Below are positions 3,306 through 48,195 of a stretch of DNA of 64,000 nt, one piece after another. The position numbers and the translations under genes are program-made. The stretch is from Octopus sinensis (lineage: Eukaryota). The stretch lies in assembly GCF_006345805.1 (NCBI RefSeq), contig NW_021833695.1:1-64000 (forward strand), in the 5' to 3' direction. The notes under the pieces are model-generated. The model searched no databases, was not told the DNA's origin, and saw only the letters and a list, made by a program, of their open reading frames with translations. Each line of letters begins with the position of its first letter. Within the stretch, counting starts at the first letter, position 1.

Positions 3306-3692
3306 GACAGTTGTACATTCACTGCGGAAGTATCGTGTTCCTGGGGTATGTGGATCTGTTGGTAATTATATGCATATGGTTGTGTTATGCTGATGAAGAG
3401 AAATAGATTCTCTCTGTCATTCCGAAATCAATTGATCCATAGCTGAACCTATTCATGAATCTTTTCGTTTACTTCCTCGCTTTCAGTGCGTGTTTATATG
3501 AGGTAGTTTTGCACCATTTCGCATCTTCTTTTAGCATGTGGCTTAGTCTATCGTAAGACTCTGTTTTTATCCCTTAATATGGTTTTATAAATATAGTTAT
3601 AAAATTATACTTTCTATGAAATTTTTAACTTAATTCGTTATGACATTCTGGCTACTTGATAAAATCAAATATAGAGGTTATCCTTAATTTTA
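3306..3692 (+). mobile_element. Penelope-like pseudo-LTR fragment carrying an HHR
   Basis: Contains the HHR at 3384-3443. The downstream ttcctcgctttcag block is shared with the cassette at 31684-31910. Ends in a TA-rich tract. Confidence 0.6.
3384..3443 (+). ncRNA. Type I hammerhead ribozyme motif, canonical core
   Basis: Stem I GUUAUG/CAUAGC; CUGAUGA 3390-3396; hairpin AGAGAA/UUCUCU plus an unpaired CUGUCAUUCC in the stem II region; GAAA 3424-3427; palindromic stem III A-UCAAUUGA-U; predicted cleavage after AUC (3437). Confidence 0.65.
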
Positions 3693-17445: not shown

Positions 17446-17855
17446 GGCGCAGGTGTGGCTGTGTGGTCAGAAGATGCTTCCCAACCACATGGTTCCGGGT
17501 TCAGCCCCACTGCGTGGCACCTTTGGCAGGTGTTTTCTACTATAGTCTCGGGCTGACCAAAACCTTGTGAGTGGATTATTTAGTATTCAGAAACTGAAAG
17601 AAGCCCGTTTTGTGTGTGTGTGTGTGTGTGTACCTTTGTTTCAGTGTTTGTCTTCCCCACCGCCACCATAACTTAACAACCGATGTCCGTGTGTTGCTTA
17701 CGTCCTCGTAACACAGCGGTTCGGCAAAAGATACCGATAAATAAGTACTAGGCTTACAAAATAAATATGTCATGGAGTCGATTCCTTCGACTGAAACCGT
17801 TTGATGCGGTGCTCCAGCATGGCTTCAGTCAAATGGCTGAATCAAATAAAAGATT
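17446..17855 (+). mobile_element. Family-A SINE
   Basis: ggcgcaggtgtggctgtgtggt start and a full body. Confidence 0.85.
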
Positions 17856-18111
17856 CAAGAATATGGTTTCAATCTTTTTTGCTGCGTAGTACAGTTTATC
17901 TCATTGCAACACACTTCATTATAAAGCAAAGATGTTCGTAGCTTTCCACAGACAAATAATCTTATATGAAACAAAAGATCCATACATTAATGTTCTTATA
18001 AATATATTTATTTATTATTGTTAAATAAGAATATTACTGACAGTGACTTCAAAGTTTCGGTTAGCTAAGTCAACGACCGACGACGGTTTAGCTGGCCCGG
18101 GACAGATATCT

Positions 18112-18196
18112 GCAGCTGGCGGGCTTCTGCTACTCTAGACCGATGATGGACAAAGATCCTGAAACATGCGTGTCTCTAGATGCAGGCCTGGCTGCT
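18112..18196 (+). ncRNA. Extended type I hammerhead ribozyme (U4C core variant)
   Basis: Stem I UCUAGA(18134-39)/UCUAGA(18175-80), extended by CUGC/GCAG and GCAGCU/GGCUGC; core CCGAUGA 18140-46; stem II GGA-CAAAGA-UCC; GAAA 18161-64; stem III A-CAUGCGUG-U; predicted cleavage after GUC (18174). Confidence 0.7.
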
Positions 18197-18865
18197 GGGG
18201 GTGTTTGTCTCCCCTTCGTAAATATATAAGGACACAGGAGAAAAAAAAATATGTCGAAGCCATCAGGAAGCGTCGATGCTTCCTAGGACTAAACAGCGGT
18301 GGTGTAATCCCCTACTGTCACGTTAAATTGACAGTATACAACCAAACTATAAAGTCATTATCAATAATATTTTGGTATGAGAATAATAAATATGTACTCT
18401 AAAAAATCATAAGATAACTTTCAAATTAATGTAAGACATTTTTTTTATTATGACTGAACAGAAAAACAAACATTAATATATTATATATGTGTGTATATAT
18501 GTATGTATTCTCTATAAGTGAGTTTTGTTATTGAAACCGACATTTATATATGATGTTTGTGTGAGTGTGTTACTATACACACACACACACACAAACACAC
18601 ATTGAAACAGAGATTGCATAGAAACATTTTATATATAGATGGATATATATATTATGTATACGCAAATATGCATAACTCTACATATGTGCACACACATAGA
18701 TATAGATACACGTAAGTTTACATGCATGAAAACATGTGTGAGGCGTGCTCTGTAAACAAAGCCATATGTAAAACGTCAGAAACCACAGACAGCCAAAAGA
18801 AAATTTACTAAAAATGTTATTTCAAGTTTATAATTTGTTCAATATGCCAAACATTTATCATTGCT

Positions 18866-25477: not shown

Positions 25478-26772
25478 TTTGGCAACTAAGTTCCCGCAGT
25501 TTTTTAAATTAAACATTTTAAAAGGATTAATAGAAAATAACAACTAATTAATCAATAATGTTTTCACCCTTGTTGTTTACAGCCTCTTCTCAACGTTCAA
25601 CAAGATTTTCAATACCTCGTTGATAGAAATCACCCGATTTCGACTCGAAAATTTGATCCAACTAAGCTCTCAATTCTGCATCAGTATTGAATGAACCTCC
25701 GTGAATAGGATTTGAAAGAGATCGAAAGAGGTGGAAATCCGTTGGTGCCAAGTCAGGAGATTACAGCGGGTGTGGCAGCACTTCCCAGCCATGCGTTTGA
25801 AAGGTTTTCTTGGTCATATTGGCGATATGAGGACGGGCGTTGTCATGCAGCAGAAGAAAACCATGCTGATGATTAGGTCTTATCTCTTGAATAGCCGTGT
25901 TGAGTCGTTCCATCTGTTGAACATAGAGTTCCGCGATGACTGTTTGGTTTCGTTCAAGCAATTCGTAATGGATAATCCCTTCCCAGTCCCACCATACGCA
26001 CAACATCGTTTTACGCAGATGAAGATCTTGTTTCACGCGCGGTGTCGCTTGTTTACCGGGGCTAAGCCATTCCTTACACTTTTTCATATTGATGTACAGG
26101 CACCATTTTTCGTCGCCAGTAACGATTCGGTAAAGAAATCGTTGCTTGTGTCCATGAGTTGAGTGATGATGAGCAAGCAAACCAGCGGAGATTGTGGCTC
26201 GTTGATTTTTGTTGTTGTCACTTAAAGCATGCAGAACCCATGCGCCATACTTCTAAACCTTTTACCATCGAGTGAAGATGCTTCTGTATAGCAGTGTGTG
26301 AGCATTCCATTTTCTCTGCCAGTTCCCTTTTCGTTTGACGAGAATTTTCGTGCAAAAGTTGATTTAATCGCTTTTCATCGAACTCAACTGGACGGCCTGA
26401 ACGAGGTGCGTCTTTGAGGTCAGAATTTCTGTTTTTGAACTTGGCATACCAATCACGAACGGTTATTTCAGCTATGACACCCTCTCCATTCACAGCACAA
26501 ATGTCACGAGCAGCTGCTGCGGCCTTAGAACCTTGATTAAAAGCAAAAAGAAAGAGGTGTGAAAATGCTCGTTTTCCTTAACTTGACATTCCATTTAAAA
26601 TAATCTGAAAATAAAGAAAAATTAACTAAAATTAACTAGAAAAAAAAATCAAAACAAAATAGATTCCAAAATGATTCAAAAATAGAATTCTCGAAGAAAA
26701 TAGATTCCAAAATTTAAAAACGCAATAAATTCCAAAATTTTTAAAAACCGCGGAAACTTAGTTGCCAACCCA

Positions 26773-31433: not shown

Positions 31434-31912
31434 AATACATAATTATATAGATATAATACTAATAAAGAGTACTGAGAAACAGCATCTACATGCTAGAGTT
31501 AGACGTCAAATGACTCTAAAAGCTACTTCGAATCACACTCCATTAGCACAAGGCTGAAAACAATGAAAATTAATAAAAGAGATTTAGTAAAAATATTTTT
31601 TTCCTTTAGGTTAATTCGAGATCGTCCGATTTTGGTATGAGTACGTATATATATTTACATTTATATACATTTTGTATATTCTACTGAGGACGGTAAAATA
31701 ATTGTATTACTAAACCAGAAATTGGATGATCTAGAATTAACCTCAAAAAATATTTTTGCAAAATCTCTTTTATTCATTTTCCTCGCTTTCAGCCTTGTGA
31801 TTATGAAATGTAATTTGAAATGGTCTTTAGAGTCATTTGAGGTCTATCTCTAGCATGTAGGTGTTGCTTATTAGCACCCGGGATTATAATTATATCTACA
31901 TAATTATGTGTG
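31434..31912. mobile_element. Fold-back PLE cassette with ~200-bp imperfect arms and an HHR
   Basis: Arms ~31434-31645 and ~31708-31912 (e.g. ctacatgctagag/ctctagcatgtag, caaatgactctaaa/tttagagtcatttg). Confidence 0.75.
31678..31737 (+). ncRNA. Type I hammerhead ribozyme motif, canonical core, damaged stem II
   Basis: Stem I AUUCUA/UAGAAU; CUGAGGA 31684-90; GGU..ACC stem II; GAAA 31718-21; stem III AUU-GGAU-GAU; predicted cleavage after AUC (31731). Confidence 0.6.
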
Positions 31913-46649: not shown

Positions 46650-48195
46650 TAACAACATGGATGTACTACACCAGATTATCCATTCAAAAACAAATCTAAT
46701 CTAAAAACATCGGTTGAATGGGACAAAGGAACCTGTGAAAGATTTGAAGGAAGAGACCTGTTAACGAAAATAAGCACAAAAACGAAATTTTACTGCAATA
46801 CAAAGCACAATTTCTCCTTTGAACGATGTCTCAGTGAAACATGTGCGAAAGATCCATGCGAAATCAACATCGGAAAGTTTACAAATTACAAAATATAAGT
46901 GGAACAAAACAGTAAGTACATTAATTGATTACACTCGAATGTCTACACAATCATATATACATTTTAATACTCAGGGAACGAAGTTGCAGCTAAATAACAT
47001 ACTACAGAGGAAATAATTATAGACCAGCACAGGTTTGATGAAAATGCAGTAATGATAGCAAAAGTTAACATAACTGATAAGCAAAGTGAAATACTCCCTG
47101 AACTAACCATATACACCAAGGCAAATGAAAATCAAATAGATGAAGAAAGTCAGACAGAAATTGGCACAACTGAACTAGATGATCTAAAATATCAAATCGT
47201 GATTTAATGGCTGAAAATTAAAGAAACTAGTATGAATGAACGTGACACTCTCCTAAAAAAATCGCAACTCCAAACAAAACCTGAAAGTAATTGGTAAAAT
47301 CCGCCTCGCCCTTACGGATATAATTTCAGCTAATGGTGTTGATATTACAGATCTCAACCACCTGTACTATGCATCAGCGAAAATCTCAATGATTCTTTGA
47401 GGTGAAAAGATTAGAAGACGACAACATTCCCACAAAATGCCTACTTTACGACGATTTTTGCAACAACCAAGTATGATTCCCTCTTGGTTAGTTAATGGTG
47501 TTACATTCTTACTTCAAAAAAAATGAAGAAACAATTAAACCAAAAAATTATAGACCCATAACCTGCTTAACAACAATATATAAAAGACTAATATCTGTCT
47601 TGACTGAATATATTTATAGTTTTTAATAGAAAGTAGTATATTTCCTAATGAGCAAATTCTACCACATAGCTGGATTAAGAAATGTCTGGAAATATATAAA
47701 ATTGCACCTACTCTGCGAAACTTCCTGTCTGTAAGTATGAAGTCATTGGGAGCCACATTGACTTTGGACAGTGACAATGAATCTCTCGATGCTGGAGACG
47801 TAAGAATTTCATGTGGCATTTTCCAGGGTGCCTATCTATTACCACTCCTCTTTTGTCTAGCCTTAATAACTGCCTCGAAATTGCTCGATGATGTACAATA
47901 CGGCTATACAATGTTTGATAAAAATATAAATCATCTCATTTACATGGATGATTTAAAGCTATTTGCAAAAAGTGACCAACAACAACAGGGTTTACTAGCG
48001 GTTGTTAAACAATTCAGTGATGACATCAGGATGCAATTTGGCCTTGATAAATGTGCAAAAGCTACCTTTATCAAAGGAAAAATGACAGGAACAATCAGCA
48101 TTAGTCTTGACCAGCACAATGTCATAAAGGAGTTAGTTAGAACCAGCGGAGAGCAACAATTACAAGGGATATTTGAAGGTGATAGAATCATGTGA
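46650..48195 (+). pseudogene. Decayed R4/Dong-type (RLE) non-LTR retrotransposon with RT domain
   Basis: PSWLVNGVTFLL..PKNYRPITCLTTIYK, PHSWIKKCLEIYKI, CGIFQG..LPLLFCLAL, INHLIYMDDLKLFAK, FSDDIRMQFGLDKCA. Internal deletions are present and the 5' boundary is approximate. Confidence 0.88.

Follow-up and report, generated by a model that had tools for sequence, protein, structure and literature searches.

A hammerhead motif in the Octopus sinensis genome belongs to a truncated copy of a dispersed family, probably a non-LTR retrozyme inserted by a PLE enzyme

The hammerhead motif described here lies in a 64,000-nt stretch of Octopus sinensis DNA (contig NW_021833695.1, positions 1 to 64,000; the window, to which all coordinates refer) and is part of a 5'-truncated copy of 247 nt. 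The family from which this copy derives is probably a non-LTR retrozyme that is pasted into the genome by the enzyme of a Penelope-like element (PLE), as judged from the scars left in genomic DNA. The features of the locus are as follows.

18009..18097 (no strand assigned): left part of an older hammerhead-bearing inverted repeat, with core CCGACGA (18077-18083) and helix II directly before the insertion
18098..18344 (+): 5'-truncated single arm of the retrozyme unit, ending at the fixed 3' end A (genome matches, unit mapping, flanks)
18099..18211 (+): long interrupted stem with the hammerhead at its tip (fold of 18098-18215, z -4.3, 0/200 shuffles)
18108..18124 (+): unit positions 11-27, the site where L1/Tx1-like LINEs insert in other copies; empty here
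18112-18117 / 18190-18195 (+): stem extension GCAGCT/GGCTGC (sequence)
18121-18124 / 18186-18189 (+): stem extension GGGC/GCCT (sequence)
18127-18130 / 18182-18185 (+): stem extension CTGC/GCAG (sequence)
18134..18180 (+): type I hammerhead (sequence, HH9 alignment, covariation)
18134-18139 / 18175-18180 (+): helix I, TCTAGA on both strands (sequence)
18140-18146 (+): hammerhead core CCGATGA (CCGAUGA, U4C; sequence)
18147-18160 (+): helix II, three pairs and a U-U, loop CAAAGA (sequence)
18161-18164 (+): GAAA, with helix III next (sequence)
18172-18174 (+): GUC (GTC) cleavage triplet (sequence)
18265..18284 (+): internal 7-bp hairpin of the unit (z -2.9, 0/200 shuffles)
18313..18344 (+): 8-bp hairpin (18313-18336) and AC-rich tail to the 3' end A (z -4.3)
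18345..18475 (+): right part of the older repeat, with remains of GAAA, helix III and GTC (18345-18356)

The hammerhead can be read from the sequence, with its core at 18140-18146 and a predicted cut after 18174, and every motif named in the first-pass annotation, including CCGACGA at 18077-18083, was found where it had been placed. The same applies to the GC-rich island (GC 0.50 compared to 0.36 in the whole window and 0.30 and 0.24 in the flanks) and to the second hairpin at 18265-18284, which was confirmed by the comparison with shuffled sequences. A point absent from that annotation is the U10.1-U11.1 mismatch that closes helix II. A search of the window with Rfam at the gathering score returned no match; the family Hammerhead_HH9 gave a full-length but sub-threshold match (20.8 bits against GA 52, E 0.015), the alignment of which covers the UAC bulge and the CAAA-A loop of canonical type I hammerheads. 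Elsewhere in the window, at 3390-3437 and 31684-31731 (+), there are two unrelated hammerhead-like motifs that have a long helix II and similar downstream sequence and are probably PLE termini.

The element had initially been drawn from 18060 to 18325. Matches in the genome begin at 18098 (query position 59), which sets the left limit of the copy, and the real element extends from 18098 to 18344, while 18060-18097 belongs to a different repeat. The copy covers unit positions 1-242 of about 358 and carries one hammerhead. With 247 of about 358 nt and no double cleavage, it is not a monomer able to release unit-length RNA or a circle, and the term retrozyme-like unit is therefore apt for the family (tandem, permuted, ORF-less and with a covarying type I hammerhead), whereas the term monomer does not fit the window copy. 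The flanks at the locus contain neither an inverted partner arm nor a visible target duplication. Most likely, the copy is ordinary debris, one truncated insertion product and a dead end. In agreement with the earlier remark that no ORF relic is nearby, no PLE ORF was found among stop-to-stop ORFs of at least 120 aa. Recognised by eye among the ORFs were a Mariner-like transposase fragment at 25761-26252 (-) and a LINE RT fragment at 47620-48195 (+). Upstream of the copy, at 17446-17880, lie SINE-like repeats, which we take to be of octopus type; the remaining repeats in the window resemble octopod ones as well.

The sequences on both sides of the copy (18009-18097 and 18345-18475) match another repeat, with 444 candidates at 78-94% identity. 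Alignment of 27 loci identified it as a small hammerhead of the form CYGAYGA-helix II-GAAA-palindromic helix III-GTC that frequently occurs as an inverted pair. The retrozyme arm was inserted between helix II and GAAA of this older repeat, whose GAAA, helix III and GTC are now 247 nt away from its core. It follows from this position that CCGACGA is the core of the host repeat. The decayed upstream core suspected near 18077 is indeed a decayed core, but it belongs to the older repeat and is not a tandem partner. The older repeat is PLE-like and has relatives at L032-L038 and L236-L255.

A search of the species' own genome yielded 1,998 candidates, 40 of which were scored, and the long matches were 91-96% identical over 18098-18340. 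A 17-mer near the 3' end had 3,110 exact matches (control, 1), corresponding to about 3,100 dispersed copies, and the genome thus holds thousands of young copies of the unit. Mapping of 30 loci on a natural 358-nt unit revealed a circular permutation, in that the sequence past the end of the window copy recurs before its start. Natural units are 353-364 nt long and ORF-less, which places them among short non-coding elements (150-450 bp, without LTR, PBS, PPT or ORF). Twenty of 123 distinct segments, from 82 loci, are longer than one unit and wrap into the same unit. The median arm length is 154 nt and arms reach up to 2.5 units, with none longer among the loci fetched; loci and flanks fetched are a small share of the family. 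Two long arms (796 nt and, as the longest, 921 nt) contain no core that passes the strict pattern.

Tandem copies, which the first-pass annotation had suggested looking for, exist in a sister subfamily and not at the window copy with its single core. Pattern searches, which are blind to the sister subfamily, returned no exact tandem with two cores from the subfamily of the window copy; partial ones are present at L055 and L085. The sister subfamily has 477 exact core matches, and among the first 100 listed there are six pairs on the same strand, spaced by 363-366 bp. Of ten loci fetched, these six and four others, four (L196, L197, L200 and L201) have an arm with two complete cores. Units in tandem on the same arm are closely related: over 23 arms, their median rank among other arms is 2.9%. 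In 246 flanks, the unit ends adjoin no non-unit sequence common to several loci, apart from LINE ends and duplicated loci. A fourth subfamily, represented by 30 loci, added only a host SINE-like flank and no shared ORF. At L005 and L025, retrozyme copies adjoin long C2H2 zinc-finger ORFs. The predicted circles of five natural units are stable (z -6.9 to -9.0; 25 shuffles each). None of the sequencing runs that contain the unit is recorded as RNA; contigs from five runs guessed to be RNA and from two of unclear kind span most of the unit and are uninformative on ends, strand, level or circles. As far as the definition of a non-LTR retrozyme can be tested in DNA, the family as a whole agrees with it.

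The C at core position 4 had been regarded as a lesion to be reverted. It is the majority state of the family: 235 cores with a fixed 20-nt context comprise 148 CCG, 79 CTG and 8 CCA, and in the sister subfamily C4 is present in 95 of the first 100 cores listed. Such counts rule out private damage of the window copy, and by comparison of genomic copies the CCGAUGA core is a family-wide trait and not decay. CpG decay as the only source of U4 copies was likewise ruled out, given 8 CCA against 79 CTG cores and the fact that U4 copies form their own clades; on an unrooted tree of 46 copies the C/U label changes twice, compared to a shuffled mean of 14.6. With the trees unrooted, U4 is assumed to be ancestral on account of the canonical core.

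Covariation among genomic copies, to which the first-pass annotation had pointed, was found. An alignment of 25 copies chosen by core pattern shows 97% pairing in helix I, and both sides have changed at 3/6 pairs of helix I and at 2/4 pairs of helix II. Slid controls pair at 22-45% compared to 89%; the covarying sequences are related, and these pair counts lean high and reflect few independent events. Helices I and II covary across subfamilies, and helix III showed no compensatory change in the 25 aligned copies. The strands of helix III are self-complementary or nearly so, and the core is buried in the lowest-energy fold predicted for the monomer, which is more stable than the active fold by 4.5-5.4 kcal/mol in four C4 copies and by 2.7-3.4 kcal/mol in four U4 copies. 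Activation by dimerisation has been described for hammerheads with a short self-complementary helix III (PMC4209133, PMC7229834). Given the predicted misfolding of the monomer and the self-complementarity of helix III, a cleavage assay on the monomer alone may read negative even with a working family.

The scars of insertion carry the case for a PLE enzyme. In 123 segments the 3' ends fall into two bins, A at unit positions 240-249 (55/123) and B at 290-309 (47/123), which are about 58 nt apart and together account for 102 of the segments; the 5' ends are spread. End A corresponds to the hairpin and AC-rich tail at 18313-18344, which by likeness to the PLE PAc may be where reverse transcription starts (PMC11167929). 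Many insertions consist of two head-to-head inverted arms, and one arm typically ends at A and the other at B. After removal of eight duplicate rows, 36 pairs included 24 that could be classified, 23 AB and one BB. Forty separate loci were then taken from the first listed 17-mer matches, 20 with two close matches and 20 with one; these held 29 pairs, of which 27 could be classified, all as AB, and two of the 27 are one local duplicate. A further 20 loci gave 6/6 classifiable AB pairs among eight. A motif-based recount over the pooled loci, which overlaps with the earlier counts and is not independent of them, resulted in 67 AB, one AA and one BB of 69.

The target duplication is about 11 bp long, as deduced from 30 pairs outside TA arrays, where the shared direct repeat averages 11.4 nt compared to 5.1 nt in mismatched pairs. 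Targets are AT- and TA-rich: (TA)4+ follows 102 of 242 3' ends, and the next 20 nt are 85% AT. A position outside TA arrays, as first remarked, is hence true of the window copy but not of the family. In 61 pairs, the arms of an insertion proved to be closely related to each other (median rank 4.5%), which could reflect a single template and is also compatible with gene conversion. Of 24 arm 5' ends located between positions 25 and 125, five lie near the predicted cut, at 73-79; these are inexact, two pass the cut by 3-5 nt, and 5' ends near the cut were discarded as a trace of cleavage. The arms at L136, L139, L148, L173, L194 and L068 have their 5' ends within 5 nt of the predicted cut, and none lies at 48-72. 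Such a cluster could stem from a cleaved template or from stalling at the ligation junction. Overlaps of 25-46 nt are frequent at inversion junctions and lie in self-complementary parts of the unit (L058, L077, L081, L084, L048 and L082), as if two cDNAs had annealed via the unit's own stems.

These scars have counterparts in elements that encode their own enzyme. PAc uses two adjacent RT starts that produce a 'tail', is extended on both strands and inserts into AT-rich targets (PMC11167929). Other PLEs are described with an inverted 5' copy, a tail at one end and 8-10-bp duplications (PMC8557442, PMC3846280), and most PLE copies are 5'-truncated (PMC8557442). All PLE-type scars, i.e. two 3' ends, 5' truncation, inverted 5' copy, one-sided tail and short duplication, were found at the level of the family. 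Owing to the fixed 3' ends, the inverted arms, the duplications of about 11 bp and the A/B pairing, a non-LTR retrozyme mobilised by a PLE is the most likely explanation. In this cycle, a tandem copy would be transcribed, and two hammerheads, each weak singly, would pair via their self-complementary helix III and cut out one unit, which a host ligase would close to a circle. In the lone circle the core would fold to an off state, which C4 would stabilise. The PLE RT-endonuclease would nick both DNA strands about 11 bp apart, each nick would prime reverse transcription, at site A for one nick and at site B for the other, and synthesis would roll round the unit until the enzyme falls off. The involvement of a PLE is inferred from the insertion scars, the partner PLE not being among the loci fetched: in this small share of the family, no autonomous PLE (RT plus GIY-YIG ORF) shares or is joined to the unit. 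PLE-like protein fragments occur in four loci (L050, L094, L053 and L161), none abutting the unit, and two PLE-like fragments, neither of which abuts it, matched no Pfam family.

A related but unlikely explanation keeps the PLE and dispenses with the circle. The template would be a linear, uncut multimer transcribed from a master tandem, and the hammerhead would be retained for protein binding or slow, protein-assisted cleavage. The prevalence of C4 (148/235 and 95/100 cores) speaks for it, as U4C lowers cleavage in vitro, yet allowed viroid infectivity (PMC3088659). PAc hammerhead mutants still insert in vitro (PMC11167929), which together with the weakness of U4C means that no result here requires the circle step. 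Furthermore, arms run past intact cut sites (L085, L055 and the two-core arms), and 8/9 Xenopus dimers are reported not to have cleaved (10.64898/2026.07.22.740005). On the other hand, copies within the C4 lineage still show compensatory changes in helices I and II, and the largest C4 subfamily has a Watson-Crick pair at 10.1-11.1. The 25 copies do not vary in core, GAAA or GUC, partly by construction through selection on the core pattern, and no array above 2.5 units exists in the loci fetched.

It is improbable that the copies are what remains of the pseudo-LTR from an autonomous PLE with its ORF elsewhere. The insertion anatomy is identical, 5' truncation is the rule among PLE copies (PMC8557442) and PLE fragments do occur in the four loci named above. 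However, the unit is always preceded by the same unit, up to 2.5 turns, and no common non-unit sequence is found at any end apart from LINE ends and duplicated loci. A TA array separates the RT fragment at L050 from the unit, and the hammerhead is canonical (6-bp/4-bp helices, HH9-like loops) instead of the minimal type described for PLEs (PMC4209133).

A second class of elements meets the unit close to the hammerhead. LINEs, L1/Tx1-like as classified from Pfam domains, insert 29-36 nt upstream of the hammerhead in this family and in distantly related ones. A two-ORF LINE carries Exo_endo_phos, RVT_1 and zf-RVT domains, and an ORF1-only relative has a weak zf-CCHC below the cut-off. Both break the unit at position 10-11 in the same orientation in all subfamilies (L129-L133, L099-L128 and L256-L285). 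With LINE-only queries, the unit follows 13/30 and 16/30 best LINE 3' ends, shares that lean high as both queries came from target-inserted copies. More than 20% of the LINE ends in the sampled best matches thus lie beside one repeat type, with target duplication. In 5/7 loci the LINE is framed by 13-19-bp duplications of the unit, the 5' junction being beyond reach in the other two; the LINE interrupts the unit and duplicates part of it, and the unit is therefore its target. Tx1 LINEs are described to target other repeats as well (PMC4494074). The abutting LINE ends would also be expected of a SINE-like repeat moved by this LINE, a view made very improbable by the interruption and duplication of the unit and by its two 3' ends, inverted arms and lack of a poly(A) or LINE-like tail.

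Of the other 14 ORF1-only ends, six lead into distantly related U3-A8 units, the hammerheads of which lie 29-34 nt downstream of the LINE end, and one leads into the target and another LINE. Four of the six were detected by scan and two by eye, and the background of the U3-A8 scan was 0/710 tiles. These loci (L257, L260, L283, L268, L276 and L285) represent two further distant retrozyme-like families with U3-A8 cores (UUGAYAA) and a canonical loop 2, which look as if they had the same two 3' ends. At L264 and L190 the site holds LINEs in tandem, and alternating unit-LINE arrays were seen at G000:C6:84.71 Mb.

The proposal of the first-pass annotation that the window holds a domesticated, host-serving intronic hammerhead can hardly be upheld: the fold is intact and there is a weak likeness to Rfam HH9, but the copy is 98% identical to its nearest dispersed sister, interrupts an older repeat and is one of thousands of young copies instead of single-copy, and no host exon was recognised among the window's long ORFs, a search that short exons would escape.

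Taken as one joint claim, a three-tier system of parasites composed of retrozyme, PLE enzyme and LINE is conceivable, and we put it forward tentatively. A superfamily of retrozymes would replicate as circles, with hammerheads (CCGANGA and U3-A8 cores) that are attenuated and become active as dimers. A dimeric PLE enzyme would integrate it and would have to prime at two sites, the two nicks of an 11-bp staggered cut starting at different RT sites of the same RNA, and such priming would explain the PLE 'tail' and the inverted repeat in one step. An L1/Tx1-like LINE lineage would have followed the retrozymes as these diverged, with every insertion 29-36 nt upstream of the hammerhead, and would use the ribozyme of its host to cut the 3' end of its own RNA.

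It has been proposed from co-occurrence and sequence kinship that PLEs mobilise animal retrozymes (10.64898/2026.07.22.740005, PMC7229834). Here, PLE-specific insertion scars sit directly on an ORF-less hammerhead unit and can be counted over hundreds of insertions. PLEs have a tail and an inverted repeat that lack an explanation, and the near-strict A/B pairing yields a precise prediction on both for the in vitro PAc assay. The natural C4, U4 and U3-A8 families provide a ready series on how much cleavage a retrozyme needs, and a LINE that inserts at one fixed position next to a ribozyme would extend the known classes of targets. A literature search mainly outside subscription journals found no description of a cephalopod retrozyme, no report on the paired use of two PLE ends and none on a LINE targeting a retrozyme; the main text of a paper on Octopus vulgaris repeats (PMC13282606), in the portion available, does not mention ribozymes. 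The family may already stand under another name in Repbase, Dfam or the supplements of papers.

Known metazoan non-LTR retrozymes, such as those of mussel (350-390 bp) and axolotl (Rtz353) (PMC7229834; see also 10.64898/2026.07.22.740005), share with the family the ORF-less unit, here of 353-364 nt. According to the descriptions in PMC7229834, a GC content under 50%, a canonical type I hammerhead with a short self-complementary helix III, tandem copies, a stable predicted circle and a target duplication of more than 4 bp are also shared, and the axolotl HHR_Amex2 has the same U-U at the base of helix II. In contrast to these retrozymes, the octopus family consists mostly of short dispersed arms (median 154 nt) and not of long arrays, has U4C fixed in several subfamilies, displays explicit PLE tail and inverted-arm scars and is known from DNA. 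The C at core position 4 is shared with the viroid U4C variant (cited in PMC3088659), but is fixed here in hundreds of genomic copies across subfamilies, as known from sequence.

The associated LINEs resemble those of the Tx1 clade (Tx1L into Tx1D, Tx1-Mar and Keno; PMC4494074) in their APE, RT and zf-RVT architecture, the presence of an ORF1-only derivative, the single site in a multicopy non-coding repeat, the 13-19-bp duplications and, in the samples taken, a share above the 20% rule given there. They differ in that the target is a hammerhead retrozyme, of a kind absent from the targets in the accessible part of that paper. With endonuclease-bearing PLEs (Penelope/Poseidon PAc, PMC11167929; Adineta Pen2a, PMC3846280; Naiad, PMC8557442), the family has in common two adjacent 3' ends, the inverted 5' copy, the one-sided tail, an 8-12-bp duplication and AT-rich and microsatellite targets, as well as the hairpin with an AC-rich stretch at end A (PMC11167929). 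Unlike these elements it is devoid of an ORF and its tail measures about 58 nt instead of 30-40 nt. Finally, the tail is called optional in the passages of these papers that address it, whereas A and B are paired in 67/69 inverted insertions of the octopus family.
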